From assembly GCA_963765495.1 (NCBI GenBank), contig CAVXWP010000007.1:64001-128000 (forward strand): a stretch of DNA of 64,000 nt, read 5' to 3'. The notes under the pieces were generated by a model. It did no database searches. It worked only from the letters and a program-made list of their open reading frames with translations, and was not told where the DNA came from. Shown here piece by piece: positions 9,718 through 58,275 of the stretch. This stretch comes from Blastocatellia bacterium (GTDB lineage Bacteria > Acidobacteriota > Blastocatellia > UBA7656). The first letter of the stretch is position 1, and each line of letters begins with the position of its first letter. A program made the position numbers and the translations under genes.

Positions 9718-11022
9718 GTGGCAGAGAGGAAAGTCAGAGCCGAACGCTTACGGGAAATCAGCCGGGCGCTTCGCCACCGCAATTACCGCATATATTTCCT
9801 TGGGATGCTGGTGTCATATTCAGGCACCTGGATGCAGAATGTCGCGCAAAGCTGGCTGGTCTATCGTCTGACGGAGTCGGCGTGGCTTTTGGGACTTGTG
9901 GGATTTGCGGGACAGGTCCCGGTCTTTCTGCTTGCCCCGCTCGGCGGAGTCCTCGCAGACCGCCACAGCCGCCATCGCATAGTCGTGCTCACACAGACGA
10001 TAGCAATGATTCAGGCATTATTGCTTGCGGCGCTCACGCTCTCGCATATGGTGACGGTGAACTGGGTGCTGGGGCTTGCGCTGATGCTGGGCACGGTCAA
10101 TGCCTTCGATATGCCTACGCGGCAATCTTTCGTGCCGGAGCTTGTTCCAAAAGAAGATTTGATGAATGCAATCGCGCTCAACTCTTCAATGATAAACGGC
10201 GCGAGGATTGTCGGCCCGGCGCTTGCCGGAATACTTGTCGCTTCGATAGGCGAGGGGCTCTGCTTTCTGCTAAACGGCGTGAGCTACATCGTCGTCATCA
10301 TCGGATTACTCTCTATCCGCACGGGGAATTCCAAGGTAGAGCGGCCCCGTGGTTCGGCCCTTTCAAACCTCAAAGAAGGGTTCGATTATGTTCGCCGCAC
10401 GCGGCCCGTTCGCGCCCTGCTCCTGCTTATTGCGCTTGTCAGCATATGCGGATTGCCCTACATCGTGTTGATGCCGATCTTTGCCGCTCAGGTGCTCGGG
10501 GCCGGGGCGCGAGGGCTCGGAATATTGATGGGCGCAGCAGGCGTGGGCGCGCTTTCCGGGGCGCTCACACTCGCGGCCCGTCGCAAAGTCGAAGGGCTTG
10601 GCCGCGTGGTTGCTCTCAGCGTAATGGTATTTGGTTCGCTCGTTTTTCTATTTTCGCTTTCGCGCAATCTTATATTGTCGGCTTTGATGCTCGTGCCAAT
10701 TGGGTTTTCAGTGATGTTGCAGATGTCGGCATCAAACACGCTTTTGCAGACCATGGTGTCGGATAGAATGCGCGGGCGAGTGATGAGCTTTTTTTCCATG
10801 AGCCTGATGGGTATGGCTCCGTTCGGGAGTCTCTTTGCGGGCGCGGTCGCCGACCGCATCGGCGCGCCTGAAACCGTGGCGGCTGGCGGAATAATTTGCC
10901 TTGTCGGCGGGCTACTGTTCGGTCAGCGATTGCCGAGCCTGAGACGCGAGGCTCGCCCCCTCCTTGTAGCGCAGGGGATTGTGGCAGGCGAATCGCCCGA
11001 AACCGATACGAAAGGGATTTGA
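9718..11022 (+). CDS. MFS transporter (MFS_3/EntS-like)
   Basis: AAGGAG RBS with GTG 9718; GTWMQ, GGVLADR, AFDMPTRQ and MRGRVMS motifs; about 12 TM segments. Confidence 0.9.
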   Translation: MAERKVRAERLREISRALRHRNYRIYFLGMLVSYSGTWMQNVAQSWLVYRLTESAWLLGLVGFAGQVPVFLLAPLGGVLADRHSRHRIVVLTQTIAMIQALLLAALTLSHMVTVNWVLGLALMLGTVNAFDMPTRQSFVPELVPKEDLMNAIALNSSMINGARIVGPALAGILVASIGEGLCFLLNGVSYIVVIIGLLSIRTGNSKVERPRGSALSNLKEGFDYVRRTRPVRALLLLIALVSICGLPYIVLMPIFAAQVLGAGARGLGILMGAAGVGALSGALTLAARRKVEGLGRVVALSVMVFGSLVFLFSLSRNLILSALMLVPIGFSVMLQMSASNTLLQTMVSDRMRGRVMSFFSMSLMGMAPFGSLFAGAVADRIGAPETVAAGGIICLVGGLLFGQRLPSLRREARPLLVAQGIVAGESPETDTKGI

Positions 11023-11036
11023 GATTTGAGATTTGA
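11016..11036. repeat. Heptamer array (GATTTGA)3; inverted partner degenerate
   Basis: Read directly; contains the MFS stop codon. Confidence 0.7.
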
Positions 11037-11087
11037 AAGTCAGATACTACAGAGCAAAGAGTTCACTCAAACACACCTCTTTAATCT

Positions 11088-11849
11088 CTAGCGGCGCGGA
11101 CTGATTTCGACTCGCGCTATGGTCAGGACGTTCACGCTGTCAGCGCCCGCATCCATCAGCGCGCTTGCTGCCTCAGCAATCGTGCTGCCCGTGGTATAGA
11201 CATCATCTATCAGCAACACCTTGCGGCCTGCGACGCGTGCGGGACGTGTGACCGCAAAAGCCCGCCTGACTGATCTTGCCCGATCTATCGAATCCATCCC
11301 TGCGCGGTGACGCTCGGTGCGTTTTACGCGAACAAACGAGCGATCATCAAACGGCAAGCCGGATGAAACGGCTCTGGCAATGAGCGCGGCCTGATTGAAC
11401 CCGCGCTCGCGTTTGCGCGAAGCGTGCAGCGGCACAGGGATTACGACATCGCTTTCAAGAAACGCGATGTTTTCAGAAAAGGCCCGAATCAAAACCCGGC
11501 GCAATCGGCGACAGATATGCGGCTGCTCTTTTAAGGAGAGTATGCTTGCTTCGAGCGCGCCTGAGTATGCGCCGCAGGCTCGCGCATAGGCGTAAGGGTG
11601 CAAGGCGCAGGCTCCGCAAAGTCGGGTGGAAGGGGTAGCCGCGCTGGCTATGCGGCGCTCAGGCATCCCGCATTTTACGCATACGGTTTGATCGAAAAAG
11701 AGCCGGGTGCTTGTCGAATCCTCCCAGCACGCCTTGCAGGCTACGCCCTCGTCCCAGGATTCAACGGAGTTGCCGCAGATGCGGCATTGTTGGGGATAAA
11801 CAAGCGAGAGCAGCCCGTCTCTCAGGTTTGCGAGCGCGCGTCCGATCAC
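11088..11849 (-). CDS. comF: ComF family double-zinc-ribbon phosphoribosyltransferase-like protein
   Basis: CxxC pairs, PVPLH..RERGFNQA and LLIDDVYTTGST; GGAGG RBS before GTG 11849. Confidence 0.9.
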   Translation of the reverse strand: MIGRALANLRDGLLSLVYPQQCRICGNSVESWDEGVACKACWEDSTSTRLFFDQTVCVKCGMPERRIASAATPSTRLCGACALHPYAYARACGAYSGALEASILSLKEQPHICRRLRRVLIRAFSENIAFLESDVVIPVPLHASRKRERGFNQAALIARAVSSGLPFDDRSFVRVKRTERHRAGMDSIDRARSVRRAFAVTRPARVAGRKVLLIDDVYTTGSTIAEAASALMDAGADSVNVLTIARVEISPRR

Positions 11850-11955
11850 AATCGTTCCTCCGCGCGGTTGATTGATTACCGGCAAACAAGTCCGGCCCGA
11901 CCGGTCGCAGGCGGCCTTTTACGAAAGGGGAGTGTTGTATTTTGGTATGGCAAGT

Positions 11956-12324
11956 CTAAATCTCTTTTTCCACCAGTAATCCTTGTTCCTGAAGCTCCTG
12001 ACATTTTATACAATGAGGCGTCCAGGGTATGGCATCGAGCCGCTTCTGTAATATCTCTTCTCCGCAGTTGATGCACTCGCCAAAAGTCCCTTCCTCGATT
12101 CGGTCCAGAGCTTCTTCGATCAGCTTGAGCGTGTTGCGTTCGTTTGTGCTTTGCGAGAAAAGAAGCTCTTTCGTATAGGAGTTCGACGCCTTATCGGCCG
12201 GGTCCTGGCTGACATCCAGATCGGCTTCGCGTCCATAATCTTCGGTGCGCTCGACCATGCCGAGCATCATATTTCTCAATTCTCGAAGCCTGGCTTCGTA
12301 TTGTTTGAGTCTGCGTTTATCCAT
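11956..12324 (-). CDS. TraR/DksA family C4 zinc-finger protein
   Basis: DPADKA coiled-coil tip, [27 protein letters not shown]. Confidence 0.92.
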
Positions 12325-12399
12325 TAAAGGCTCCTGGTCCCGTATTCGACCTTATAATTGCCAATAACTCCGGGCATAACCGAACAGCGTCGGCCCGGC

Positions 12400-12867
12400 T
12401 CACTTTTGATAAGGCAGGTCATGCAAAATAGCGTATGCGCGATAGACCTGCTCAGCCAACAAAGCTCGCGCGAATTCATGAGTCAAAGTCATTCGTGACA
12501 GCGCAAGTGTGAAATCGGCTCGCCTCCTCACCGCATCGGAAAGCCCAGCATAACCGCCTATGACAAAGGTCATCTGTCTTGTCCCGGCTATCTGGTGCTT
12601 TTCGATGAACCGAGCGAGTTCGACCGAACTCATCTCACATCCACGCTCATCGAGCGCCACGACGAAGGGGTCGGATTCTATGCGTGACAGAATCTCTTCA
12701 CCTTCCTTTTCAATGATCGTCTCGGTCTGCTTCCCAACATCATTGCGGTCGCGAAGTTCGACCACTTCGGTTCGAGTAAATCTTTTCAGGCGACCCAGAT
12801 AATCTTCGATCAAATCCCTGATCGCGCTTGTCTTCGTCTTGCCTACCCATACGATCCGCAACTTCAT
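12400..12867 (-). CDS. rlmH: 23S rRNA (pseudouridine1915-N3)-methyltransferase
   Basis: LDERG, FVIGG..GL, LSRMTLTHE..R..LAEQVYRA and PYQK. Confidence 0.95.
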   Translation of the reverse strand: MKLRIVWVGKTKTSAIRDLIEDYLGRLKRFTRTEVVELRDRNDVGKQTETIIEKEGEEILSRIESDPFVVALDERGCEMSSVELARFIEKHQIAGTRQMTFVIGGYAGLSDAVRRRADFTLALSRMTLTHEFARALLAEQVYRAYAILHDLPYQK

Positions 12868-12872
12868 AGCGA

Positions 12873-12982
12873 TGATTCGTGATTCGTGATTCGTGATTCG
12901 TGATTCGTGATTTACCAGACCTGCAAGTTGTCTTGAACCTGCGGCCTGCCTGTAAGATCACGTATCACTCTTCACGCATCAC
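12873..12982 (+). repeat. Inverted GTGATNC heptamer arrays with conserved 44-bp core (copy A)
   Basis: (TGATTCG)5, then core, then ATCACG-type arm. Confidence 0.85.
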
Positions 12983-12985
12983 TGC

Positions 12986-13939
12986 TCAATTCAGCCCGGC
13001 GGTCTGCACCTTCATCGGGCCTATTTTGTATCGCCGCATCTTCTCGTAGAGGTTCTTGCGGCTTATTCCCAGAATCTCGGCCGCGCGAGTCTTATTCCCT
13101 CGCGTGTATTCGAGTATTTCGCGAATATAGACGGCCTCAAGCTCTGCAAGCGAAGGTTTGTGCTTGCGCGATTGCATCAAACGCGCCGCCGACCGCAGAT
13201 AATCGGGCAACTGCTCCGGCTCGATCACATCCTGGCTTGTTGCGAGCACCGCACGTTCTATGATGTTTCTTAGCTCGCGAATATTGCCCGGAAAATCATA
13301 ATTCATCAGCAGGGCCAGAGCCTCGTTCGAAAGGTGTACGCCGGCTCGCCCGCTGCGGGATGCAAACTGCCGGACAAATTGCTCGGCCAGCATACGTATG
13401 TCTTCGGCTCTGTCAATCAGGCGGGGCAATTGAATAGTGACTACCGCAAGCCGGTAATAGAGATCATCTCGAAATGCGTGAGTTCGCACGGCCTCTTTCA
13501 TATCGACATTGGCCAGCGCTATTATGCGAACATTGATTCTTATCAACTGCTTTCCGCCGAGCCGTTCAAAGCTTCGCTCTTCGATTACGCGCAGCAGTTT
13601 CGCCTGTGCCGCAGGCGAGAGGCTAGCTATCTCGTCCAGGACAAGCGTGCCGCCTTCGGCCGCCTCGAACCGCCCGGGTTTGGATTCGCCTGCGCCTGTG
13701 AAGGCTCCCTTTTCATAGCCGAACAACTCGGATTCCAGCAGGTCTTCCGGCAGCCCCGCGCAATCTATTTTGACAAAAGGCTTTGAAGACCTGGGGCTGC
13801 GGTCGTGAATCAGGCGAGCGAAAACATCCTTGCCCGTGCCCGATTCGCCCAGGACAAGCACATTTGCATCCGTAGCCGCGACCCTCTCAATTAGCTCCGC
13901 GACTCGCTGCATCTCTGGAGCGTTAGCTATTATCTCCAT
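12986..13939 (-). CDS. Sigma54-dependent enhancer-binding protein (AAA+ and Fis HTH) lacking an N-terminal sensor domain
   Basis: GESGTGKD at residue ~30, [32 protein letters not shown] and [14 protein letters not shown]. Confidence 0.93.
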
Positions 13940-13948
13940 ACCATTCTC

Positions 13949-14080
13949 GAGGGATGAGGGATGAGGGATGAGGGATGAAAAAGAATCTAGCGCAACAGCC
14001 TGATAAAAGACTGCTCACTATTTCATCAGCATAATTCCCTACAGTCCTTTTCATCCCTCATCCCTCATCCCTCATCCCTT
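13949..14080. repeat. Inverted heptamer arrays (GAGGGAT)4 ... (TCATCCC)4
   Basis: Read directly; the right arm supplies the last codons and stop of rsfS. Confidence 0.9.
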
Positions 14081-14454
14081 ATCTCGACTCTTCCCGCATC
14101 GCGCCATAATCTCTCAAGATCATAAAATGCCCGTGCCGTGCTGCTGAATACGTGCACTATGAAATCTCCGTAGTCTAGCAGAATCCACTCCGCACTGCTA
14201 TAGCCTTCTATGTGCAGAGGGCGCTTGCCCGTTTTTCGCAACTCCTCTTCGACCGCGTTAGAGATGGCCTGCACCTGACGGGTGCTCGTCCCTGTGCAGA
14301 TCAGGAAATATTCGGTGAAAGACGCGATCTTGCGTAAGTCGAGCAGGACTATATCGGTCGCCTTCTTTTCGCTCGCAATCCGGGCGGCGATCATAACCAG
14401 TTCATCCGGCTCTATCGCGTCGGGTTGCTGATGTTTGTTTGCTGTGCTACCCAT
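14065..14454 (-). CDS. rsfS: Ribosome silencing factor
   Basis: EKKATDI, YFLICTG..RQVQAI, WILLDYGDFIVHVF and FYDLERLW. Confidence 0.95.
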   Translation of the reverse strand: MGSTANKHQQPDAIEPDELVMIAARIASEKKATDIVLLDLRKIASFTEYFLICTGTSTRQVQAISNAVEEELRKTGKRPLHIEGYSSAEWILLDYGDFIVHVFSSTARAFYDLERLWRDAGRVEIRDEG

Positions 14455-14458
14455 CTAT

Positions 14459-16173
<1,715 letters not shown>

Positions 16174-16177
16174 TTAT

Positions 16178-16265
16178 TTGTCCGTTGTCCGTAGTCCTGG
16201 TCCGTTGTTAATCAATTGTCTCGATTGCAGCTAACAACGGACGACTGACGACTGACGACGGACAA

Positions 16266-16267
<2 letters not shown>
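16178..16267. repeat. Inverted heptamer arrays TTGTCCG-type ... CGGACAA/CTGACGA-type
   Basis: Fills the rpmA-obgE spacer. Confidence 0.8.
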
Positions 16268-16520
<253 letters not shown>

Positions 16521-16635
16521 AACTCCTCTATATGCGATTCAAAAGATGCTCATCGCCCGACGGGCGTCCTTTATAAAGCCATATATAAGGACTTCACAAT
16601 CGAGCTTTAGAATTTGCGGCGCGCAAGAAAATCTG

Positions 16636-17268
16636 TTACTGCTCGTCTTCGGAAGCCGATTCGGTTTCAGAAGACGCTGCGGCCTCACCCGTTGAAGCCT
16701 CGGCAGTTGAAGCCTCGGCGGTTGAAGCCTCGGCAGTTGAAGCCTCGGCGGTTGAAGCCTCGACGGTTGAAGCCTCTGCCAGTTCGGCGCTCGCTTCTGC
16801 TGCCTCGGTGCTTGCTTCTGCCGCTTCGGGTTCTGTCTCTGCTGTTTCAGTAGCGGTATTCGCCGTCGCGGCTTCTGCTACCGGAGCCTCGATCTCCTCT
16901 GCCGGTGCGACAGGTGCGGCTTCGACTTCGGATTCCGGGGCTTCGGGCTTTTCAGCCGTCGCGCCAATCGCCTCTATGAGAACGGCGGTAAAGTTCTGCC
17001 TGTGCCCGTGCTTTTTCTTGTACTGCTTGCGCCGTTTCTTCTTGAATACGATTACCTTAGTCCCGCGACCGTGTTCCACGACGGTAGCCGTAACGCGCGT
17101 GCCGTCAACGATAGGCGCTCCGATGCTAATGTTGTCGCCGTCGCCCGAAGCGAGCACGTCGAACTCGACGGATGCTCCCACTTCCTGAGTGATGGACGGT
17201 ATGCGAACGATCTCGCCTTCGGCAACTCGGAACTGTTTGCCACCGGCCTGAATGATAGCGTATGCCAC
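16636..17268 (-). CDS. rplU: 50S ribosomal protein L21 with ~108-aa acidic Ala/Glu C-terminal extension
   Basis: [24 protein letters not shown] and a tail with (EASTA)n. Confidence 0.95.
16691..16780. repeat. 15-bp coding tandem repeat x6 (GTTGAAGCCTCGGCR)
   Basis: Units start at 16691, 16706, 16721, 16736, 16751 and 16766. Confidence 0.92.
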
Positions 17269-17438: not shown

Positions 17439-17513
17439 GCGGATTTGGCGGATTTTCGCGGATTCAGGTTTATATGATCCAATCTGAAAATTCGTCGATA
17501 ATTCTGTAAATCC
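17439..17513. repeat. GCGGATT 9-10-bp-period array with degenerate inverted arm
   Basis: GCGGATTTG GCGGATTTTC GCGGATT, then AATCT/AATTC/AATCC remnants. Confidence 0.45.
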
Positions 17514-17520
17514 TATCTGA

Positions 17521-20895: not shown

Positions 20896-20925
20896 CCTGG
20901 ATCGGGATTTCGGGTTCCACACACG

Positions 20926-20960
20926 TCTGAGATTTGAAATGTGAAATCTCAAATCTCAGA
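20926..20960. repeat. Inverted heptamer arrays TGAGATT/TGAAAT ... AATCTCA
   Basis: TCTGAGATTTGAAAT-GTGA-AATCTCAAATCTCAGA between convergent genes. Confidence 0.75.
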
Positions 20961-20994
20961 TGTGCGCGGTTATATTGATTTCTTATTGATTCGC

Positions 20995-25423: not shown

Positions 25424-25616
25424 GGTAAAATCACACCAGTTCTATATGGTCTGGGGAAGTATGCAGCAATTGACGAACAACTCGTTGTGACTTGTTGCCA
25501 CGCAAGCAAATTGCAGCAGAGTTCAGCCACGAATTCTCACGAATTCTTTGTGGCTGCCTGCGAGAATTTGTCAGACACGTCTTTGAAGCTCAAACGATCA
25601 GTTATATCTGCCGGCA

Positions 25617-27931: not shown

Positions 27932-28155
27932 CCCTCTTGTTCGATCCCCAAACAGGTTCGTTCTTTATATCGTTAATCTTTTATGTTCTATGCCCTGGGA
28001 CTCAAGCGGTAAGCTCTTTTATGAAGCCACGATGCTTTCCCAAAACCCCGTTGCTTGCTCTTTAGTCTTCACTCGTAAGCTACGATTATCATGTTACCAA
28101 CGGGCGTTGCTCGAGTCTATAGGTGATGCCTGTTTGCAATGGAAATGCAAGAAAA

Positions 28156-28270
28156 GTGAATCGTGATGCGTGAATCGTGATGCGTGACCTTTGAACAGGC
28201 CGCCTGTCAAAGACATCTCGCAAACCTGCTAAATCACGCATCACGATTCACTTTTACTCTCACGATTCAC
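28156..28270 (-). repeat. Inverted GTGATNC heptamer arrays with conserved 44-bp core (copy B, reverse orientation)
   Basis: The reverse-complemented core aligns without gaps to copies A and C. Confidence 0.85.
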
Positions 28271-28277
28271 GTCTCAC

Positions 28278-28544
28278 TCATTTCTTCTTGGGTTTGATGG
28301 CGGGTTGGCCGCGATGTTTGTCGAGGTATTTGCCCAGCAAAGATTTCTTGTAATTCTGTCGGATGTCGGCCGAGGCCGGAGCCTGTGTTTTTGACTGTGA
28401 CCGAGGTGTTGCGGGCGCGGTCTTGATCGCGGGAGATGATTCGGTTTTTGGTTTGGCGGTTGGCCTGGGCTGTGTGGCTTTGGCCGCCTTTGCGACCGCC
28501 CTTCCTTTGGTTATCTCTTTTTTCGTCTGGTTGGTTTTTGCCAT
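28278..28544 (-). CDS. Small Lys/Ala/Pro-rich basic hypothetical protein
   Basis: AAGGAG RBS; 88 aa, strongly basic. Confidence 0.65.
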   Translation of the reverse strand: MAKTNQTKKEITKGRAVAKAAKATQPRPTAKPKTESSPAIKTAPATPRSQSKTQAPASADIRQNYKKSLLGKYLDKHRGQPAIKPKKK

Positions 28545-31257: not shown

Positions 31258-31327
31258 GACAGGACTAACAGGATTAACTGGATTTTTCCAGGCTATATTC
31301 AAGAAACTTGTGAACCCTGTTGATCCC
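31258..31327. repeat. 9-10-bp-period arrays ACAGGAYTA ... degenerate inverted arm
   Basis: GACAGGACTAACAGGATTAACTGGATT ... AACTTGTGAACCCTGTTGATCCC. Confidence 0.55.
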
Positions 31328-31454
31328 TACAAAAAAAATCGATTTCCCCGGCATCACTCGGCCGGTGTAACAAGGCCGTACAATCCAACCGCTTTTTGTG
31401 TATGCGATTCGCCGTATCGGGCCAAAATCTCGGCAATTAGAGCCAAAATCCGCC

Positions 31455-31829: not shown

Positions 31830-32954
31830 TTAAAGCTTCAGTCGGCTCAAAAACTCCTGGTTGTTGCGCGTTTCAGCCAGCCCCTTGAGCAGTGTCTCCA
31901 TAGCGTCTACGGAATTCTTGCCCGCAAGCGCGCGGCGCAGCAGGTAAATGCCCGGCAAATCGTCCGAGTTAAATAATTTTTCTTCTTTTCGAGTGCCCGA
32001 TTTTGAAATATCAATGGCAGGAAAGATGCGGCGTTCGGCCAGGCGACGGTCTAACACGATTTCCAGATTTCCCGTGCCTTTGAACTCCTGAAAGATCACT
32101 TCATCCATCTGGCTGCCCGTGTCTATAAGCGCGGTGCCCATGATGGTGAGCGAGCCGCCGCCTTCGGCATTGCGGGCCGCGCCAAAAAACTTTCGCGGAA
32201 ATTCGAGCGCGCGCGAATCGACGCCGCCGCTCATGGTGCGGCCCCGGCGGCTCGTCTCTCTGTTTGATGCCCGCGCAAGCCGTGTGATCGAATCGAGCAG
32301 GAGCACGACATCGCGCCCGCATTCGACCATGCGTTTTACTCGTTCGAGCACGAGTCGCGCAATCTGTAAATGCAGATCGGAACCCTGATCGGCCGATGAA
32401 GCTGTGACCTCGCCGCGCACTCTGCGTTTCAGATGAGTGACCTCTTCCGGGCGCTCATCTATCAGCAGCACGGCCAGATGGATGTCGGGATGATTGTTTG
32501 CGACCGCTTCGGCGATCTCTTCTATGATCGTGGTCTTTCCTGTCTTTGGCGGCGCTACGATCAGGCCGCGCTGCCCTTTGCCTATCGGCGCTATCAGATC
32601 AAGCACGCGCATCGACATATTATCGTTGCCTGCCGAAAGCTCAAGCCTCTCGGTAGGGTCAATGCTTACGAGCTGACTGAAATCAGCAATCCTTGCGTAC
32701 TCATCGGGGCTTACTCCGTTGATCTCTTCTACGGCGGTCATCTGATCCGATTGCTTCGCGCCACGCCCGTTTTGCGAAGGGCTGGCCTCGCCAATTACCT
32801 GCACGCCCTCGCGCAGGGAAAATTTCTGAATCAGATTGCGTGAAACGAATATATCATTCTGGCCGGGAAGGTAGTTGTTTTCCGATTGTCTTAAAAATCC
32901 AAATCCTTTTTCATTGATTTCGAGAACGCCCGAAGCGCGTTGTTCAGATTCCAT
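31830..32954 (-). CDS. rho: Transcription termination factor Rho (short form)
   Basis: GFGFLR, PIGKGQRGLIVAPPKTGKT, LIDERPEEVT, EFKGTGN and SGTRKEE. Confidence 0.93.
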   Translation of the reverse strand: MESEQRASGVLEINEKGFGFLRQSENNYLPGQNDIFVSRNLIQKFSLREGVQVIGEASPSQNGRGAKQSDQMTAVEEINGVSPDEYARIADFSQLVSIDPTERLELSAGNDNMSMRVLDLIAPIGKGQRGLIVAPPKTGKTTIIEEIAEAVANNHPDIHLAVLLIDERPEEVTHLKRRVRGEVTASSADQGSDLHLQIARLVLERVKRMVECGRDVVLLLDSITRLARASNRETSRRGRTMSGGVDSRALEFPRKFFGAARNAEGGGSLTIMGTALIDTGSQMDEVIFQEFKGTGNLEIVLDRRLAERRIFPAIDISKSGTRKEEKLFNSDDLPGIYLLRRALAGKNSVDAMETLLKGLAETRNNQEFLSRLKL

Positions 32955-32973: not shown

Positions 32974-33066
32974 TGGTGGTCGGGGGTCGGGGGTCAGTCA
33001 TCCGGCGATACCTGGTATTGAGATTCCCAATTACCAGTAATCACCGACCACTGACCACCGACCACT
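32974..33066. repeat. Inverted heptamer arrays GGTCGGG/GGTCAGT ... ACCGACC/ACTGACC
   Basis: Fills the recQ-rho spacer. Confidence 0.8.
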
Positions 33067-38182: not shown

Positions 38183-38277
38183 TAATCCTTTAATATCTTA
38201 GAAAAACAGCTTCGTATAGGGGCTCGAAAAAAACTGACTCGGAAGGATACCTTATTTTGCTTCTACATTCCAATGGT

Positions 38278-38407
38278 GGGGGCCAGGGGCCGGGGGTCGG
38301 GGGCCGGTTATTGATGAATGTAATCGTTAACCCGGAAAACCAATCACGGCTAACATAGGTCTGCGAAAAGATGAAAACCGGCCCCCGACCCCCGGCCCCT
38401 GGCCCCC
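38278..38407. repeat. Perfect 32-bp inverted repeat made of GGGGCCR heptamers
   Basis: 38278-38309 is the exact reverse complement of 38376-38407. Confidence 0.92.
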
Positions 38408-38412
38408 GCCGA

Positions 38413-39647: not shown

Positions 39648-39715
39648 GCCACAGAGACACAAAGGCACAGAGATTTTTTTGTAATCTTTTCTCTGTGTCT
39701 TTGTGCCTCTGTGGC
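39648..39715. repeat. Inverted octamer arrays CACAGAGR ... YCTCTGTG
   Basis: GCCACAGAGACACAAAGGCACAGAG ... CTCTGTGTCTTTGTGCCTCTGTGGC. Confidence 0.85.
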
Positions 39716-39803: not shown

Positions 39804-40856
39804 ATGAACTTCATAGATTTGCGTAGCGACACCGTGACAAAGCCTACCGACGAGATGCGCGAGGCGATGGCTCGCGCCGAAGTCGGCGATGATGTTTATC
39901 TGGAAGATCCGACGGTGAATCGGCTGCAAGATATGGCCGCCGCAATGCTCGGCAAAGAGGCCGCGCTTTTCGTCCCCTCAGGTACGATGGGCAATCAGAT
40001 ATGCGTACGCCTGCACACCGAGCCCGGCCAGGAAGTTATCACCGAAGAACGCAGTCACATATTCAATTATGAGATGGCCGCGATGTCTGCCTTGAGCGGG
40101 ACTCTTGCACGCCCGGTTCGCGGGGCTGACGGGTTGCTTGATTGGCCCTCTATCGAAGCGTCAATTCGCCCGACGAGCGCATATTACATTGCGCAGACGG
40201 GTCTGGTTACGCTCGAAAACACTCACAACATGGCGGGCGGTTCCATTATGCCGCTTGAGCGCGTGGAAGAGATATGCGAGCGGGCGCACGAAGCGGGTCT
40301 CCCGGTGCATCTTGACGGCGCGCGGATATTCAACGCAAGCGCAAGCCTGGGGCGCGATGTCTCGGAGCTTGTTCGTCCCGTCGATTCCGTGATGTTTTGT
40401 TTGTCGAAAGGGCTCGGCGCGCCCGTAGGCTCTCTCATCGCGGGTTCACGCTCGTTCATCACACGCGCCATCGTAGTGCGGAAGATGTTTGGCGGAGGGA
40501 TGCGTCAGGCGGGCGTGCTTGCTGCCGCTGGCATTGTCGCGCTTGAACAGATGACCACCCGCCTCGCCGAAGACCACGCCAACGCGCAACTTCTCGCTCG
40601 CGGCGCGGCCGAAATTCCCGGCGTAACGATTGATCCCGAAAAGGCGCAGACCAACATAGTGATATTCGACATCGGCGGTACGAGCATAACGACTGCGGAA
40701 TTATCGGAAAGGCTCAAACAGCAAGGCATCCTTGCAAACGGGATCAGCCCGCGAGAGATGCGAATGGTCACTCACAAGGACGTGAGCCGTCAAGATTGCC
40801 AGGTGGCGCTCGATGTTATGAAGGAGATAATGAGTGATGCGCACAGTGATGCGTGA
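39804..40856 (+). CDS. ltaE: Low-specificity L-threonine aldolase
   Basis: [31 protein letters not shown] and [12 protein letters not shown]. Confidence 0.95.
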
Positions 40857-40941
40857 TCCGTGATTCGTGATTTAGCAGACTTGCAAGTTGTTATTGACAG
40901 GCAAGCTTCCTGAAAATCACGGATCACGCATCACGCATCAC
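40846..40941 (+). repeat. Inverted GTGATNC heptamer arrays with conserved core (copy C)
   Basis: The left arm contains the ltaE stop; core TAGCAGACTTGCAAGTTGTTATTGACAGGCAAGCTTCCTGAAA. Confidence 0.88.
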
Positions 40942-40950
40942 TCTACACTT

Positions 40951-42444: not shown

Positions 42445-42566
42445 GGGGGCCGGGGCCGATTGGCGCAAGATGCGTTATCGCGCGGCGCGGGGCCGGGGAA
42501 GAATTAGAGAGAGAGCTGATTTCCTTTCCTTTTTCCCTGGCCCCTGACCCCCGGCCCCCGGCCCCT
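42445..42566. repeat. GGGGCCG heptamer arrays with inverted arm
   Basis: GGGGCCGGGG pieces ... CCCTGGCCCCTGACCCCCGGCCCCCGGCCCCT. Confidence 0.7.
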
Positions 42567-43798: not shown

Positions 43799-43858
43799 GA
43801 TTTTAGATTTTGGATTTTGGATTTTGGATTTCAAATCTAAAATCCAAAATCCAAAATC
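43799..43858. repeat. Inverted heptamer arrays (GATTTTG)4 ... (AAAATCC)3
   Basis: Nearly spacer-less hairpin after ribBA. Confidence 0.9.
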
Positions 43859-46900: not shown

Positions 46901-48199
46901 ATCTCTTCATTCACGCAGGATATTTTTGTGACCGGCATCGCCAAAGTAGATGCCTCCATCACGGGGGCGCTCACCAGTCCGCGACTGCTCGGCACGGTGG
47001 ATTTGAGAGATGTCGGTGCGCGAGTGGTCGGTGTGCCTGTCTCAATAAATCAGGGGCAGGGCTTGATCAGATTCACGGCCAGTCAGGTGGTAATAGATAA
47101 CTTCAACGCTTCGACTCCGGGCGGCGGAACCCTATCGCTAAACGGAGGGGCGGCTGCGCCTTCTGACTCCCTTGTGCCCAATCGCTGGCGAATTGAGGCC
47201 CGAGCCGATCAGGTGGGTATGGAATACCCGCGCGATACGTTGACCGTATTTGACGCCGATCTCGTATTGCAGGGCAATCCCCGATTCCAGTTGCTTTCAG
47301 GCAACGTGGATGTGCGGCGCGCTGCTTACACAAAAGACATAACGCTTCAGGACCTGGTTTCGGGCGGCGGCCCGTTCGGCTCGGATTTCCTCGATGTAGG
47401 ACCGGGCGGCGGCAGCGGCGGCGGTGTAGGCGGCGGCGTAGGCGGGGGGCCTGCCTTATCGCTCGATATTCGCGTAAACGCAAACGAGACGCTGATAATC
47501 CGCAACAATCTGGCCGATGCGGTTGGGAGCGCATTTATCAACATACGTGGAACGGTTAATGAGCCGCAGCCGTCGGGTCGCATTCAACTGTCGCGCGGGA
47601 CACTCGAATTTCGCAACGACCGTTATGAGATAACGCGAGGATTGATCACGCTGCCGCCGGGGCGCAATGCCGACCCGATCTTTGACGTAAAGGCGGAAGC
47701 GGAAGTGAGCGGCTATCAGATAAGAATAGGTTTTTCGGGGCCGCTCGCAAAACTGAAGACCACCCTGGAATCGGACCCGAACCTGCCCGAGGGCGATATA
47801 GTCTCTCTGGTTTTGACGGGCAATCTGTCGAGCAACTCTTCGACGAGCGCCGCCGCCACTCAGACCGGGCTTGGACTTGCGCAGTCGCTTTTGTCGGCTT
47901 CGCTTTCAGCAAAGCTTGAAGAGGGAGCGCAACGATTGTTCGGACTGAGCCGATTCTCGGTTGATCCGCTCATCGTAGGCCGGGGCAGCGACCCGACCGC
48001 GAGAATCACCATAGGGCAGCGTATCGCCAAAAACCTGACCGTCACCTATTCGCAAAACCTGACATCGGGTTCGGGTCAGTCGGGCGTCGACCGCATAATC
48101 CTGGTCGAGTATCGAATCAGCAATCGTTTTTCGGTAGTCGGTTTCCGCAACGAGCGCGGCGAACTCGGATTCGATGTGCGCGTGCGAAAGAGATTCTGA
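43928..48199 (+). CDS. tamB: TamB / AsmA-like translocation and assembly module protein
   Basis: N-terminal TM anchor, long beta-rich repeats and a DUF490-like C-terminus; adjacent to an Omp85 gene. Confidence 0.82.
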   Translation: MRRKILIGVIALLSVILLIVIGLFWYIRSGRLDLFVQNQIIVALKDFGIRTEIGKTHLDLGGYTVTLDDIKLYAGDGQKPFGSVQNLKVQFSIVDYLKQKINITQVVVTHPSIWLEINEQGQTNLDQLHAPPKSDKESTIRFLTAFIEVNNGVLNFVDNKNKVEATLPDFYAKFDPREPEAIEDKINHTLSLNFDDASAKYQGRPIEKIKADIEAIVTGESAEINKFQIASDVGDIEVTDTPARVTSYDPLKYNFAIKADARLAEISRVFLPEQQMSGAATIVARVEGTGADYRINNASVNADSLTVEGFRIAEVRVTSDANGEGEKYDATLDLKAGPINGKDIDIASIRLSDARVSGVAENFDITGGLTLDSLKSGKITVKNLRGRLDADPDKVSLSNLSASALGGNISGSATVAYGGGQSRVDVQFSSIDLNQVATLAAKSDVDVRGTANGTARLTFPGVNFEAATGPINATFEAAVSPTQPGAETLPAQGRISVVASGGGFNINEAYVKSNQSELTVSGRVSSNLTASLDVNLKSDDMAEVQRAVEGFGLIPADIQEKYQVALTGPGQFNGRVEGRVTQPRVTGHVRLENVQAQNELIGSFESDVSFTPAEFNLENAELVRPDQSRVSFNVNGPIGTAEGAGGISLHANVDSFDLSTLARLAAPELGDIVGGGKVSGRIDLSGLPGPRGISGTADVTVTSAAFNLPSAEEGKESEKLEVPLFKGQVSIENSVLTARDLQVEVGGSQITGELTFNLDTYAYSVDAQGKGIDLSQVAGAFSDSVNLTGTADVNITGRGDWDDLSTANLNATIQGQNVALNGRDLGDAKIVAFTEGGQLKVEATGNVLNEQRTLRASIDLTDRKNYPITSTIELNNEELGPYLELISPGLSTVTGRATGTISLSGPLQNPDQLQATINLSQLVIGGKVSEAQTYTLTNQGDVVITASPKEVTLKSVTFTGEGTSISLGGTISREETVKSNLTIDGEINLRLISSFTQDIFVTGIAKVDASITGALTSPRLLGTVDLRDVGARVVGVPVSINQGQGLIRFTASQVVIDNFNASTPGGGTLSLNGGAAAPSDSLVPNRWRIEARADQVGMEYPRDTLTVFDADLVLQGNPRFQLLSGNVDVRRAAYTKDITLQDLVSGGGPFGSDFLDVGPGGGSGGGVGGGVGGGPALSLDIRVNANETLIIRNNLADAVGSAFINIRGTVNEPQPSGRIQLSRGTLEFRNDRYEITRGLITLPPGRNADPIFDVKAEAEVSGYQIRIGFSGPLAKLKTTLESDPNLPEGDIVSLVLTGNLSSNSSTSAAATQTGLGLAQSLLSASLSAKLEEGAQRLFGLSRFSVDPLIVGRGSDPTARITIGQRIAKNLTVTYSQNLTSGSGQSGVDRIILVEYRISNRFSVVGFRNERGELGFDVRVRKRF

Positions 48200-48202
48200 A
48201 AT

Positions 48203-51345
<3,143 letters not shown>

Positions 51346-51347
51346 AT

Positions 51348-52058: not shown

Positions 52059-52081
52059 AATCAAGAAGTGATGGGGTGAAA

Positions 52082-52612
52082 ATGGAAGACCTTCGCTATC
52101 CAATCGGGCCGTTCAAGTTTGAAGAGAGCGTGAGCGCAGGCGCTCGCCCGCACCTGATTGACCAGATCGCCGAGACCCCGGCAAAGCTTCGCCTCGCGGT
52201 CGAAGATTTGTCGCCCGAACAGCTTGATACGCCTTACCGCCCCGGCGGCTGGACCGTCCGACAGGTAGTCCATCATCTGCCGGATAGCCATCTGAACAGC
52301 TATGTCCGGTTCCGCCTCGCCGTGACCGAAGACGAGCCCACGATACGCCCGTATCACGAAGACCTCTGGGCGGAACTCGAAGACGCGCGAACCGCGCCCG
52401 TCGATGTCTCGCTTGCGCTGCTTGAGGCTCTGCATCACAGGTGGGTGTTGTTTTTGAGGTCGCTCACAGATGCGGATTACCATCGCTCTTTCAAGCACCC
52501 TGAACTCGGACTCGTCCCGCTTGATAAGAATCTGGCGCTTTATGCGTGGCACGGTCGCCACCACGTCGCCCAGATCACATCGCTTTGCGAGCGCATGGGA
52601 TGGAAGCAGTGA
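52082..52612 (+). CDS. bstA: YfiT/BstA family DinB-superfamily (bacillithiol) S-transferase
   Basis: DLRYPIG, LDTPYRPGGWTVRQVVHHLPDSH and YAWHGRHHVAQI. Confidence 0.9.
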   Translation: MEDLRYPIGPFKFEESVSAGARPHLIDQIAETPAKLRLAVEDLSPEQLDTPYRPGGWTVRQVVHHLPDSHLNSYVRFRLAVTEDEPTIRPYHEDLWAELEDARTAPVDVSLALLEALHHRWVLFLRSLTDADYHRSFKHPELGLVPLDKNLALYAWHGRHHVAQITSLCERMGWKQ

Positions 52613-52620
52613 ACTTTTTG

Positions 52621-52692
52621 AACCACGAAATACACGAAACACAAGAAACAAACATATAAATCTATTTCGTGTGTTTCGCGTGTTTCGTGGTT
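52621..52692. repeat. Inverted nonamer arrays CACGAAAYA ... TGTTTCGTG
   Basis: AACCACGAAATACACGAAACAC ... TTTCGTGTGTTTCGCGTGTTTCGTGGTT between convergent genes. Confidence 0.88.
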
Positions 52693-55600: not shown

Positions 55601-55851
55601 ATAGGAGTCCAGACGCGCCCGTAATCATCGCTCTTCCACACACCGCCGTTGTTGACGCCTATGTAAAACAGATTAGGCTGGCCGGGCACGCCGGTTGCGC
55701 CGACGGTGCGGCCTCCACGATGAGGGCCGATCATTCGCCAGCGCATATTTTGATAGAGAGCCGGGTCGTATTGTTGCGCCGATGCAGGCTGAGGCAACCA
55801 GCCCGCGATGAGTAATCCAAATAAGGCCAGCAGAGAGCCGCGTCCTTTCAC
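52693..55851 (-). CDS. Secreted VPS10/BNR (Asp-box) repeat glycosyl-hydrolase-like protein
   Basis: WRMIGPHRGGR, many S-x-D-x-G-x-x-W boxes and GTHGRSFWILDD. Confidence 0.88.
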   Translation of the reverse strand: MKGRGSLLALFGLLIAGWLPQPASAQQYDPALYQNMRWRMIGPHRGGRTVGATGVPGQPNLFYIGVNNGGVWKSDDYGRVWTPIFDDQPTGSIGALAVAPSNPNIIYVGSGEGLQRPDLSTGDGMYKSIDAGKTWQHLGLRDGEQIGAIIVDPRNPDRVFVAVLGHPYGANQERGVFRSTDGGKNWEKVLYKDENTGAIALAFDPVNPQIIYTDLWAARQGPWENGAWQGPGSGLYKSTDGGTSWRQLTKGLPTVEQGLGRIGIGVAPSDPNRIYAVVDAPDLGGLYRSDDAGESWQRITNEARVWSRGSDFAEVKVDPKNRDIVYIANIASYRSTDGGKSFTAFKGAPGGDDYHTVWINPDDTDIILIASDQGAVITVNGGATWSSWYNQPTAQFYHVSTDNQFPYYVYGGQQESGSVGIASRGNDGQITFREWHPVGVEEYGFVAPDPLNPDIIYGGKASRYDRRTGQTQSIAPEALRSGKYRFIRTMPLLFSPVDPHILYLAGNVLFKTTNGGHSWDVISPDLSRPSPEVPASIGVYRTPEMARMPRRGVIYAVAPSHKDVNLIWAGTDDGLIHLTRDGGKNWTDVTPADLTAWSKVSMMDAGHFDTETAYAAINRIRLDDQRPHVYRTHDGGKTWKEITRGLPDNGPVNTVREDPVRRGLLFAGTERAVYVSFNDGDQWQPLRLNMPATSIRDLVIHDDDVVVGTHGRSFWILDDITPLRQITDQVAESSVHLFKPQVAYRVRWNLNTDTPLPPDEPAGKNPPDGAIINYYLKQAVSGPVTLEIFDKSNRLVRRFSSEDKPDPVVETELALPTFWIRPPQILSTGAGMQRFVWDLHYPQPETDRTSYPISAIYRDTPPVPPGPWVMPGEYTIKLSAGGESYTETLTVKMDPRVDTGGQVLEQQYALSMQAYEGAGKTRATLEQVQKLRAQIKTLGDLKGRKALADQVAALDKKAAAVEGESGRGRGPAGAGAGGEESLSRLNREMIQLLDVLQGADARPTASAVTASDELQKAMTRLLEQWNEIKSKDVNALNEQLRKAGLSPLNTGL

Positions 55852-55990
55852 GTTTCACCTCCGAAGAAAAATATGAGAATTGAAGCCAGTTGATTCTATT
55901 CGAGAGAAACCAAAATCGCCAACGTCACGGCGCAGATGCGACTGGACTACAACCGTCTCTGCGGCCTATGATGGGCACTCGAAACAGGTT

Positions 55991-56091
55991 TGATACGTGA
56001 TGTGTGATGCGTGATGCATGACTTTCAGGCGAGTACTTGTTGATAAGTTCACAGCTAACTTAATCAATCACGCATCACGCATCACGTATCA
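55991..56091 (-). repeat. Inverted GTGATGC heptamer arrays with 44-bp diverged core (copy D)
   Basis: Same arms and core length as copies A-C; the core ends CCTGAAA. Confidence 0.75.
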
Positions 56092-56115
56092 TCCCCCTCA
56101 TAACAGGAGATCTTC

Positions 56116-58176
56116 ATGAAGCGACAGGCAAAAATAACCCTCCTATTTCTGCTCGTTATTTCCACAATCTCTCTGCCCGTGCTCAAGGCGCAGAAGAAGT
56201 CTATCAATGATACGACGCTTCGCAACGCCGACCAACGCAAAGGCGAGTGGTTGACTCACGGGCGGAATTACGCTGAAACACGCTTCAGCCCGCTCAAGCA
56301 AATCAACGCCGCGAATGTCGCGAGGCTCGGCCTTGCCTGGTCATTTGATACCGAGACCACTCGCGGGCTTGAGGCCACGCCAATCGTTGCCGACGGAACG
56401 CTCTACGCCACGGGAAGCTGGAGTGTGGTCTTTGCTTTAGATGCGCGAACCGGCAGGGAGATTTGGAAATGGGACCCGGAAGTGCCCCGCACCTACGGTC
56501 AGAAGGGCTGCTGCGATGTGGTCAACCGGGGCGTAGCGCTCTATGAAGACAAGGTCTACGTAGGCACATTCGACGGTCGACTTGCCGCGCTTGACCGAAA
56601 GACGGGCAAGGTGATCTGGCAGGCGCAGACGGTTGATCGGGATCAGCCGTACACGATCACGGGCGCGCCGCGCATCGTCAAAGGGAAGGTGATAATAGGC
56701 AACGGCGGGGCCGAGTTCGGCGTGCGCGGGTATGTTTCGGCTTACGATGCGCGGACGGGCAAGCTGGCGTGGCGGTTCTATACCGTGCCGGGAGACCCTT
56801 CGAAGCCCTTCGAATCACCCGAGATGGAGAGCGCGGCAAAGACGTGGAAGGGAGAATGGTGGAAGTACGGCGGAGGCGGGACGGCCTGGGACTCTTTTGC
56901 CTATGATGCGGAGCTTGATCTGCTTTACGTGGGAACAGGAAACGGCTCTCCGTGGAATCAGGAGATTCGCTCACCGGGCGGCGGAGACAATCTCTACCTC
57001 TCATCTATTCTCGCTTTGCGCCCGGACACGGGCAAGCTCGTATGGTATTACCAGACCACGCCAGGCGAGTCGTGGGATTTCACCGCTACGCAACACATGA
57101 TACTGGCCGATTTGAAGATCGGCGGACGCGTGCGCAAGGTGTTAATGCAGGCTCCAAAAAACGGCTTCTTTTATGTGCTTGATAGAAAGACCGGAGAGTT
57201 GATCTCTGCCGAAGCCTATGTGCCTATGACGTGGGCAAAGGGGATTGATAAGAAGACCGGGCGACCCATCGAAGACCCGGCGGCGCGGTATAAAGACGCG
57301 CTTGCGATAATGAAGCCGGGGCCCTTTGGCGGGCATAACTGGCAGCCTATGTCTTACAACCCTGAAACGGGTCTGGTTTACATACCGGCTCAGGACCCGT
57401 TTTTCGCCTACACTCAGGACGCGAAATTTCAATACAGGCCCGGCAGTTGGAACACGGGGGTGGATTTCGGGGTCCTCAAAGACCCGCTACCCTCTATCCC
57501 CACGGGCCATCTGTTAGCCTGGGATCCAGTCGCTCAAAAGGAACGGTGGAGAGTTCAGTACACGAGCATCTGGAACGGCGGCACGCTCACGACGGCGGGC
57601 AATCTGGTTTTTCAGGGGACGGCTGACGGGCGCTTTGTAGCCTACAGCGCCGACAAAGGAGAAAAGCTCTGGGAAGTCGCGGTTGGAACCGGGGTAATCG
57701 CACCGCCCGTCACTTATGAAGTGGACGGCGCGCAGTACGTCTCGGTACTGGCCGGCTGGGGTGGATCGTTTGCGATGGCGGGAGGTACGGCGACGGGAGG
57801 CATCCCTGCGCCCGGCAGGCTTCTGACTTTCCGGCTCGATGGAAAGCAGAAGCTTCCATTTACGATGGCGCAAAAACTCCCCGATGTGAAGACAATCGAA
57901 TTTGAGGCTTCGCCTGAGACTATCACGGCGGGCGCGGTTCTGTTCGCCCAACAATGCGCGACCTGTCACGGGCTGGCCGCGATGAGCGGAGGCGCGACGC
58001 CGGACCTGCGCTACTCTCAAACGGGAATATTCGACAGGTACAAACAGATTGTGCTCGAAGGCTTGTTTGCCGATGCGGGGATGCCTTCTTTCAAAGGGCG
58101 ACTCAGCGCCGAAGAGGTAGATGCGATTCGCGCTTATGTGCTCAAGCGCCGGTCTGAAATCGCTTCCAAAGAGTGA
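56116..58176 (+). CDS. PQQ-dependent quinohemoprotein alcohol dehydrogenase (type II, C-terminal cytochrome c)
   Basis: [35 protein letters not shown] and heme motif CATCH. Confidence 0.93.
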
Positions 58177-58194
58177 TAAAAGCACCCTTGATAT

Positions 58195-58275
58195 TGAGTT
58201 ATGAGTTATGAATTTTGAGTTTTGAATTTAAGCAAGTCATCTGAATTCAAAACTCAAAACTCAAAACTCATAACT
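58195..58275. repeat. Inverted heptamer arrays TGAGTTW ... AAACTCA
   Basis: Between convergent genes. Confidence 0.9.

Follow-up and report, generated by a model that had tools for sequence, protein, structure and literature searches.

Inverted heptamer-array hairpins in the gene spacers of Blastocatellia and their probable growth in place

Many gene spacers in a 64,000-nucleotide (nt) stretch of a Blastocatellia bacterium (GenBank assembly GCA_963765495.1, contig CAVXWP010000007.1, positions 64,001 to 128,000; "the window" below means the whole of this stretch) carry a short tandem array, mostly of a 7-base unit, followed by the reverse complement of that array, and the paired arrays fold as hairpins. 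This array-hairpin habit is lineage-wide in Blastocatellia, the elements span from the upstream stop codon to the next ribosome-binding site, and they are not empty shells of gene-carrying mobile elements. The account that we favor, and that we judge somewhat likelier to be right than wrong, is that they are home-grown palindromes, changed in place by slippage in 7-base steps and by copying from arm to arm, which probably act as RNA hairpins in the manner of repetitive extragenic palindromic (REP) elements. Its two parts differ in standing: origin by growth in place is supported, and the RNA function is inferred because of the position of the elements, the stability of their folds, and the lack of canonical terminators.

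Array hairpins in the window and in its relatives

A preliminary description of this DNA had listed about 19 sites with such arrays, most of them as inverted pairs. Tandem Repeats Finder placed short-period arrays at or beside all 19 coordinates, with a reverse-complement array tens of bases downstream at most of them (the sites were also read by eye). Our own detector, tuned looser since a stricter version missed degenerate arrays, called 33 arrays in the window (22 of period 7, five of period 9, three of period 6, two of period 5, and one of period 8), against 0 to 5 in each of 30 dinucleotide-preserving shuffles of the same DNA. Period-7 arrays numbered 22 against nine summed over all 30 shuffles, and nine window arrays had a strict reverse-complement partner, against none in the shuffles. 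Each gap of at least 30 nt between mapped window genes was also folded and scored as a z value against shuffles (n = 42 gaps). Listed sites occupy 19 of the 42; 16 of these 19 reach z ≤ −3.6, and the 23 without a listed site all stay at or above z −2.6. Only gaps with an element fold unusually well, and arrays, strict pairs, and gap folds all exceed what shuffled DNA offers.

Some details of the preliminary description needed amending. The hairpin layout holds at 16 of the 19 sites, is marginal at 25525, and is absent at 11016 and 17439, which are arrays without a partner; the three to six copies said to make up each array shrink to merely two or three at 20926, 25525, 28156 (counted as a 14-mer), 31258, and 32974. 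Placement between genes is the rule, with exceptions at 40846 (left arm) and 11016, where the array enters the end of the upstream open reading frame (ORF), and at 48203, where the right arm lies inside bamA and codes for part of the signal peptide. The co-directional and convergent contexts were both recovered (listed sites in 12/30 and 5/6 window gaps, respectively), along with a divergent context that had gone unmentioned (2/6). There is no array hairpin in the first 11 kb or the last 5.7 kb of the window, despite gaps of 94 to 986 nt.

Window genes were named by NCBIfam and are mostly of housekeeping character (rplU-rpmA-obg-nadD-rsfS, rho, recQ, ltaE-cmk-ribE-ribBA, tamB-bamA, and others). 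Acidobacterial signatures are present among these matches, and the host is a Blastocatellia acidobacterium, the closest TamB proteins (50 to 61% identical) coming from Blastocatellia metagenome-assembled genomes (MAGs). A scan of representative genomes, among which the window's own genome is not included, returned 218 pattern matches and no relative when the single window TamB protein was the query; with an alignment of 35 TamB homologues, it yielded 45 syntenic Blastocatellia loci (L numbers below) totaling 790,579 nt, across which the gene order ltaE-cmk-ribE-ribBA-tamB-bamA-surA-like is preserved. These loci hold 202 arrays, 117 of them of period 7, and 53 paired arrays, 44 of them of period 7. 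One locus, L027, was left out of tree reasoning because its tamB span has frame breaks and its position is unreliable: at 10001-14384, its tamB match has the top best-segment identity (64%) yet 40 stops in the joined tblastn span, which may reflect an assembly-quality problem of that MAG.

Anatomy was counted on 65 paired elements defined across the window and the relatives' loci. In this material, 126 arrays lie between genes or at gene ends (121,883 nt; 10.3 per 10 kb), and the period is 7 in 106 of them (84%), 8 in 13, and 6 in 3; within genes, there are 109 arrays over 732,696 nt (1.5 per 10 kb), with periods broadly spread. The paired elements share a polarity, the 5′ arm having more G than C in 60 of 65, less in 4, and equal amounts in 1 (p ~7e-14); because an inverted repeat reads alike on both strands, this G-first polarity is valid for transcripts of either direction. 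The two arms are also mirror copies, in that pairing in register beats a one-unit shift by at least 3 Watson-Crick pairs in 49 of the 65 elements, and element interiors span 7 to 290 nt. In the three spacers with well-defined ends (n = 25), the 5′ arm begins a median of 4 nt past the upstream stop codon, at times containing it, and the 3′ arm finishes a median of 12 nt ahead of the next start codon.

The unit sequence is what varies. As the preliminary description had it, one architecture is built from many units, and 50 distinct ones occur among the 65 paired elements. Their 5′-arm composition sums to G 135, A 99, T 71, and C 59, and most contain no run of three G (GATTTTG, GTGATKC, TGAGTTW, CAGTATG, CACAGAGR, AGCAAAG, and others). 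The commonest 4-mer is found in 8 units, compared with a shuffle mean of 7.0 and a maximum of 12, so that no 4-mer is common beyond chance. A special unit vocabulary (GATT/GAGT), noted post hoc in 14 of the 50 and seemingly significant at that count, was rejected because the top 4-mer count lies within this shuffle expectation.

Orthologous spacers and exchange between sites

At ribBA|tamB, where 16 of 39 spacers hold a paired-array element, locus L018 has a single GATTGCGG unit in a 12-nt spacer, in L012 this unit forms a one-unit hairpin, and in L024 each arm consists of four units. The unit GTGAWRC is confined at this site to one clade (7 rows), in which it runs from one unit (L019) to about nine per arm (L011). 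GATTTTG, the unit of the window's own element at 43799, is present in several deep lineages, with orthologous, same-unit elements in L010, L026, L027, L034, and L036, and a CGATT after the stop codon is common to lineages with GATTTTG, GATTTCG, and GATTGCG units. Plain hairpins occupy the site in other lineages, at least 6 unit types occur there across lineages, and the element is retained across lineages whose TamB proteins are only ~50% identical. The continuum at this spacer from a one-unit hairpin to about nine units per arm, with units tracking phylogeny, supports growth in place rather than insertion.

The ribE|ribBA spacer was counted as carrying a paired-array element in 9 of 34 cases, a number that our detector undercounts. 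Fifteen of the 34 spacers are shorter than 45 nt and hold just the stop codon, ribosome site, and start codon; among them are the empty spacers (14 to 18 nt) of the sister lineage L006 and also of L027, L001, L010, and L021. Of the 19 spacers of at least 45 nt, 18 fold with z < −2, and those not called as arrays include variable-length CTTTGCG(N) units (L011, L008, and L013) and perfect non-periodic palindromes (41 bp in L024 and 29 bp in L029). That the spacer is either short or folded argues that elements come and go as units, and the non-periodic palindromes at the same sites argue that heptamer arrays are the commonest form of a wider habit of long palindromes in spacers. Filled and empty versions of one orthologous site are thus both seen, and the sites are not fixed, in line with the presence/absence variation that the preliminary description had proposed to look for. 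Paired-array elements are scarcer at ltaE|cmk (5 of 29 spacers) and cmk|ribE (1 of 32). At tamB|bamA (13 of 38, plus 8 with an array only) and bamA|surA-like (6 of 33, plus 4 with an array only), the counts and lengths are approximate, the bamA-side end of these spacers being imprecise, although the array calls were made on the DNA itself.

At tamB|bamA, the element reaches into the coding sequence. In the window, the bamA start codon (~48451) lies inside the 289-nt interior of the element, and the 3′ arm, CTGCCTA × 4.4 at 48517-48547, supplies some of the signal-peptide codons of BamA. Both the ribosome site and the start codon of bamA are therefore enclosed by the paired arms. The C/T-rich arm encodes the hydrophobic core of the signal peptide (LLPTAYCLLPAVFCL in the window, LLPFAFCLLP in L027 and L040, and a long LRPLLFTL... 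run in L011) and stands just before the conserved mature BamA N terminus, ...SD(L/V)GDFLGRRVT (window 48451-48551). A coding arm is found at the bamA start in L027, L040, L010, L024, L011, L017, L014, L022, L019, L039, L013, L015, and L006; L028, L045, and L042 have no array and short, ordinary BamA signal peptides. A further, nested hairpin without periodicity (48340-48443; 39-nt arms 85% complementary, 26-nt loop) closely precedes the bamA start codon in the window. Gene ends are overrun as well: the ltaE and MFS transporter ORFs read into the first array units before their stop codons (40836-40856 and 11016-11022), so that arrays appear to have replaced or extended native C termini by a few residues, and in relatives, the array often starts right at the stop codon (L016, L032, and L040).

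Elements of one genome also share sequence. Alignment of the window elements at 12873, 28156 (inverted), and 40846 extends over both arms and a 45-nt core, a similarity matched in the core by 0, 1, and 2 of 2000 shuffles for the three comparisons (28156 versus 40846, 0/2000). The cores are only ~70 to 75% alike. An nhmmer profile of the shared core found just the three window copies and none in the 790 kb of relatives' loci; blastn-short of element cores against all loci found no members outside the window, and no sequence is common to the other elements. At 55991, the arms are of the GTGATGC type seen in this core family, but the core is unrelated. Between L004 and L005, the unit AGTGCTG versus AGTGATG differs by the same change at both ltaE|cmk and ribE|ribBA, a concordance which indicates that elements of one genome exchange sequence. 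Neighboring spacers have a common unit in L005 and L043, and in the window, the elements at 38278 and 42445 are both built of GGGGCCR; in L043 (1-1625), ATTGATG arrays flank ribBA on both sides, several of them in tandem. The shared core and the concordant unit change are both signs of copying between sites, and to that extent they support the mobilization that the preliminary description had inferred.

Origin, role, and rival explanations

Under the account of growth in place, an ordinary short spacer hairpin would gain or lose 7-base units through slipped-strand mispairing, and its arms would be held as mirror copies either by intrastrand template switching (quasi-palindrome correction) or by selection for pairing. 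Units would drift slowly, becoming uniform inside each element and in some cases across elements of the same genome, and whole elements would occasionally be lost, gained, or copied to another spacer. Once transcribed, an element would form a very stable stem-loop that begins at the upstream stop codon and ends shortly ahead of the next ribosome-binding site. Most likely it would then serve like a REP element or a 3′ stem-loop without a U-tract, shielding 3′ ends left by processing or Rho-dependent termination and determining how stable the segments of an operon are relative to one another; folding would also bring a stop codon and the next start codon near each other in space.

Intrinsic (Rho-independent) terminators were considered and rejected. 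A T-run (at least 4 within 12 nt) follows just 7 of 56 co-directional elements and is missing at 5 of 6 convergent ones, and matches to a hairpin-plus-T-run terminator consensus are at their expected count (24 versus 22.4 ± 5.2). Stem-loops without U-tracts do occur at transcript 3′ ends, Rho-dependent ones included (PMC13613805). Since the hairpins lack U-tracts, the window's own rho ORF is relevant here: the ORF at 31830-32954 (374 aa) is matched by Rho models only from about model position 49, and a "short form" Rho2 match falls below the cutoff.

Several observations weigh against this account. Elements stand in 2 of 6 divergent gaps (38278 and 55991), where a 3′-end protector makes no sense. 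Stem mismatches, which selection on RNA should bias toward G·U on the sense strand rather than A·C, number 41 and 29, respectively (binomial p = 0.19), an excess too slight to decide for or against an RNA role. Generic slippage leaves unexplained why 84% of intergenic arrays have exactly period 7, and the same is true of the G-first order of the arms in 60 of 64 elements; for this polarity, it might be speculated that a C-rich arm made first would stand exposed as a Rho-loading site until its partner was transcribed. The clean 14- to 18-nt ribE|ribBA spacers of the closest relatives look like whole-element insertion or deletion rather than gradual growth. Perfect stems of 29 to 41 bp exceed the needs of an RNA hairpin and suggest a recent or active process at the DNA level, and three elements with a common core at unrelated sites imply some copying between sites. 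The relatives, moreover, are MAGs, in which repeats may have been broken or collapsed during assembly, and the in-depth comparison covers two or three orthologous spacers of one operon.

Many of these difficulties would be met by a dedicated activity (a polymerase, primase, repair enzyme, or small mobile system) that adds 7-base units and copies them from arm to arm with fixed polarity, and that is shared by cyanobacteria, xanthomonads, and Blastocatellia. If it existed, it would explain the 84% share of period 7, the G-first order, mirror arms perfect over up to 41 bp, the concerted unit change within one genome, and the whole elements found where sister lineages are empty, none of which ordinary slippage predicts. 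We nevertheless give such an activity only about as much credence as a long shot deserves.

Evidence can also be enlisted for the view that the elements are non-autonomous and mobile, comparable to MITEs (miniature inverted-repeat transposable elements) or REP elements, with arrays serving as recognition arms and an enzyme encoded elsewhere moving or writing them in trans into permissive spacers; this is the idea of the preliminary description minus its cargo gene. Clean empty sites accord with it (the 15 ribE|ribBA spacers under 45 nt include that of the sister L006, and the window has a 137-nt element there), as do the three window elements at unrelated sites whose arms and 45-nt core are common to them and absent from 790 kb of relatives' loci, the sharing of units between neighboring spacers (L005, L043, and window 38278/42445), the concordant change between L004 and L005, the sharp period, the strict polarity, and stems perfect over 29 to 41 bp. 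Gene conversion between similar arms, however, would also explain sequence sharing between sites, and with 50 units among 65 elements and no 4-mer beyond chance, there is no single recognition sequence. Neither a target-site duplication nor a conserved terminus can be seen at the three copies of the core family, and these copies are less alike (~70 to 75%) than expected of MITEs, the other elements sharing no sequence at all; nor is there the conserved palindrome or tag of REP elements and bacterial interspersed mosaic elements (BIMEs), the one family with a common core having three members. Persistence of the ribBA|tamB element at ~50% TamB identity, with gradual unit drift and a one-to-many unit continuum, fits mobility poorly, and we regard this explanation as unlikely.

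Searches for the genes that a mobile system would bring gave nothing. The preliminary description had treated the hairpins as empty, non-autonomous forms of elements that elsewhere flank TIGR02436 or TIGR04256 genes, noting that neither gene is in the window. The absence was borne out (0 of 54 window ORFs match), and it extends to the surroundings of the arrays: none of 96 small ORFs within 250 nt of arrays in the window and the 45 loci matches either family (96 of 99 candidates were compared, the other three being rsfS, rlmH, and rpmA, already named). Long interiors were considered as cargo and rejected, since four pairs ~1.4 kb apart proved to be neighboring same-unit spacer elements around cmk-ribE or ribBA, the only genes enclosed between like arms. 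Pfam matches of 15 otherwise unnamed window ORFs included no transposase, REP-associated tyrosine transposase (RAYT), or reverse transcriptase; a RAYT (IS200/IS605-like TnpA) gene is absent from the 64-kb window, and Rfam at gathering thresholds recognized no family in it. We found no paper linking TIGR02436 or TIGR04256 to heptamer arms, most subscription journals being outside the search. With no cargo match, no transposase, and gradual growth at ribBA|tamB, the idea of empty forms was not sustained.

Two further explanations place the function in the arms themselves. One sees them as binding sites for a protein able to follow a 7-base register along single-stranded RNA or DNA (a cold-shock-domain protein, an S1-like protein, or an unknown regulator); the arrays would then directly control transcription or translation of the genes beside them, the hairpin being secondary. 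The arms do stand at sensitive places (at median distances of 4 nt from the stop codon and 12 nt from the following start), around the bamA start codon, and in 2 of the 6 divergent (promoter) gaps; a study of Beggiatoaceae proposes one CspB per heptamer and post-transcriptional regulation (PMC4679880), and deletion of heptamer repeats is described as affecting recO and recF reporter expression in Nostoc (bioRxiv 10.1101/2022.06.06.494920). With fifty units among 65 elements, however, a single sequence-specific binder is ruled out, mirroring of the arms (49 of 65) and strong fold z scores show that pairing itself is conserved, the non-periodic palindromes at the same sites of other lineages make periodicity dispensable there, and solo arrays are a minority (2 of 19 window sites), all of which leaves this reading improbable. 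The other has the G-rich arm of each strand folding as a four-stranded G-quadruplex that affects transcription or replication, as proposed for G-rich heptamers of Xanthomonas and Nostoc. The G-first order (60 of 64) agrees with the same convergent orientation in Xanthomonas (PMC4692102), and a few units do have G-runs, namely, GGGGCCR (38278 and 42445), GAGGGAT (13949), and GGTCGGG (32974); most units, however, have no three-G run, and an ever-present complementary arm competes for duplex formation, so that G-quadruplexes seem very improbable indeed as the general explanation.

Window sites, related repeats, and significance

The paired elements of the window lie in spacers of diverse orientation. 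Between the divergent epimerase gene and hemW (38275..38410; gap z −10.8), 35-nt arms around a 66-nt interior are 97% complementary, agreeing at 34 of 35 positions, with three variant positions mirrored among them. Between the sigma-54 activator gene and rsfS (13949..14083; gap z −5.1), 4.3 × GAGGGAT and 4.7 × TCATCCC form 23-nt arms that are 100% complementary around a 72-nt interior. Arms of 32 nt and 94% complementarity, with unit TGAGTTW, lie between the convergent PQQ dehydrogenase and TPR protein genes (58195..58275; gap z −8.4), and right after the ribBA stop codon (43799..43858; z −7.3), GATTTTG × 4.7 forms a hairpin with a 1-nt loop. The hemW/ltaE element (39648..39715; gap z −7.0) has period 8, with CACAGAGR × 3 and 26-nt arms 92% complementary. 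Period 9 is seen between the convergent yfiT and glycosylhydrolase genes (52621..52692, CACGAAAYA; gap z −9.0), in an element that is one of the 4 exceptions to G-first polarity, and downstream of the asnS start (31258..31332; alone z −4.1), where ACAGGATTA × 2.9 has a degenerate partner.

The core family comprises the element between rlmH and the sigma-54 activator gene (12872..12983; gap z −3.9), with 5.7 × TGATTCG, a degenerate partner, a stem of 21 Watson-Crick pairs and 5 mismatches, and a 44-nt core in common with the others; the inverted member at 28152..28284, with 2.3 × (GTGAATC GTGATGC) and a perfect 22-nt partner; and the ltaE/cmk element (40836..40942; GTGATKC), whose left arm enters the ltaE ORF end. 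The element of GTGATGC type between the divergent glycosylhydrolase and PQQ dehydrogenase genes lies at 55991..56091. Degenerate TTGTCCG arrays pair between obg and rpmA (16177..16268; gap z −6.9), GGTCGGG pairs with CACCGAC between rho and recQ (32974..33066; gap z −3.8), and a hairpin with ~2 units of AAATCTC and 24-nt arms 83% complementary separates the convergent aldehyde dehydrogenase and VWA genes (20917..20969; alone z −6.3). At ribE/ribBA (42445..42566; GGGGCCR; z −6.0), the left arm is split by a 30-nt insert (42459-42488) that is itself a small hairpin; comparable side stem-loops, arising by insertion at a fixed stem position, are found in the P6b stem of a Nostoc intron (PMC4476775). 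The wide tamB/bamA element (48199..48551; gap z −8.7) has a 5′ arm of CAGTATG abutting the tamB stop codon and the 289-nt interior noted above.

Three sites fold poorly. The solo array at 11016..11036 (3 × GATTTGA; alone z −0.65) overlaps the stop codon of the MFS transporter ORF and has no reverse-complement partner, and the array between rplU and the CDF transporter gene (17439..17464; 2.7 × GCGGATTTT, period 9-10; alone z −0.74) forms no convincing hairpin. Between the convergent pdxJ and arginase genes (25525..25580; 2 × CACGAATTCT, period 10; alone z −2.0), the fold relies on the unit's own GAATTC palindrome rather than on an inverted array, and 8 of 200 shuffles fold equally well.

Other repeats of the window lie within genes. 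The rplU ORF (16636-17268; 210 aa) contains a 15-nt repeat (5.7 copies) and a 21-nt repeat at 16691-16829; because the L21 model matches only residues 3-101, this is an L21 with a repetitive extension outside the conserved domain. A period-9/27 array of CTTATCTTT (~9 copies, 6343-6429) in an unnamed minus-strand ORF (5443-6534) presumably encodes repeats of the protein and has no relation to the hairpins. At 8-1087 and 1484-2629, there are adjacent paralogous genes with an Sde182 nucleoside-hydrolase-like domain (Pfam).

Short tandemly repeated repetitive (STRR) sequences of cyanobacteria, reportedly recognized by Mazel et al. in 1990, are said to be intergenic tandem heptanucleotide arrays with several unit types per genome and many copies, period 7 being over-represented among long repeats of this kind. 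They have been described mainly as direct arrays. The REP elements and BIMEs of enterobacteria and pseudomonads comprise, in each genome, one or a few conserved palindromes that bear a GTAG or CGTC tag, are associated with a RAYT gene, and, when transcribed, can stabilize upstream mRNA. The likeness to STRR heptamers drawn in the preliminary description is apt, for the Blastocatellia arrays are tandem 7-nt units, intergenic, at many sites, and above chance; they differ in their host, an acidobacterium, and apparently in their units, which are diverse. Like REP elements and BIMEs (PMC3733652), the array hairpins are dense intergenic palindromes, found both in operons and where genes converge, that vary in presence at orthologous sites, and they are set apart by having no common sequence or tag, arms that are tandem arrays, and no RAYT-like gene in the window.

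Closer parallels are found among heptameric simple sequence repeats (SSRs), the array hairpins being the Blastocatellia version of those known in cyanobacteria and Xanthomonas. Mrazek (2007; cited in PMC4679880) is credited with the finding that heptamers are the commonest long SSR, polymerase slippage being the proposed cause. There are 70 and 75 cases of paired, convergent GGGAATC arrays in Xanthomonas campestris and X. axonopodis (Rehm et al. 2015, PMC4692102); these are likewise intergenic (mostly ~4 units), pair across opposite strands, and have the potential to form stem-loops or cruciforms; there, however, a single family of units, GGGANTN, prevails and has been examined for its formation of G-quadruplexes, in contrast to 50 units here, most of them unable to form such structures, in another phylum. 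The passages of that report consulted include no comparison of orthologous sites. Few of the Nostoc GGGGAYT arrays in the same report are paired, unlike 16 of 19 sites here. The P6b stem of the Nostoc tRNA-Leu(UAA) group I intron consists of 7-nt motifs, with units inserted or deleted on either side of the stem, sometimes on both, and with one class of motifs taking the place of another in different lineages (Kaasalainen et al. 2015, PMC4476775). Unit gain and loss on both stem sides and motif replacement at one site (here ribBA|tamB) recur in our elements, and P6b copy number is clade-inherited; GATTTTG even fits P6b Class I (TDNGATT) and TGAGTTW fits Class II (NNTGAGT), a resemblance not beyond chance by the 4-mer test. 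P6b differs in being a single site in a ribozyme intron with two motif classes, as opposed to dozens of protein-gene spacers. Finally, the TAACTGA repeats found in Beggiatoaceae, cyanobacteria, and Bacteroidetes (169 sets are direct and one is inverted; MacGregor 2015, PMC4679880) are similarly intergenic arrays (2 to 6 copies) a few bases from start codons with a suggested post-transcriptional role; they are of one unit, direct, and oriented to the downstream gene, unlike the inverted pairs of many units described here.

We found no published description of such elements in Acidobacteria, most subscription journals being outside the search, and the polarity, the mirror arms, the stop-to-ribosome-site placement, the history at orthologous sites, and the coding arm in BamA are new descriptive points. 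To our knowledge, almost nothing is known of why the heptamer step is seven or what the arrays do. For these questions, the lineage is an unusually clean comparative system, since individual spacers of one operon can be traced through dozens of genomes and show element birth, single-unit growth, unit change, and loss while the arms stay complementary, and the strict G-first polarity and the placement from stop codon to ribosome-binding site offer experimental handles. There are practical consequences as well: the hairpins will break short-read assemblies, and gene callers are misled by them, with ORFs extended through arrays at ltaE and bamA. These hairpins are also the only conspicuous structures at gene ends in members of a phylum whose transcription termination has hardly been studied.

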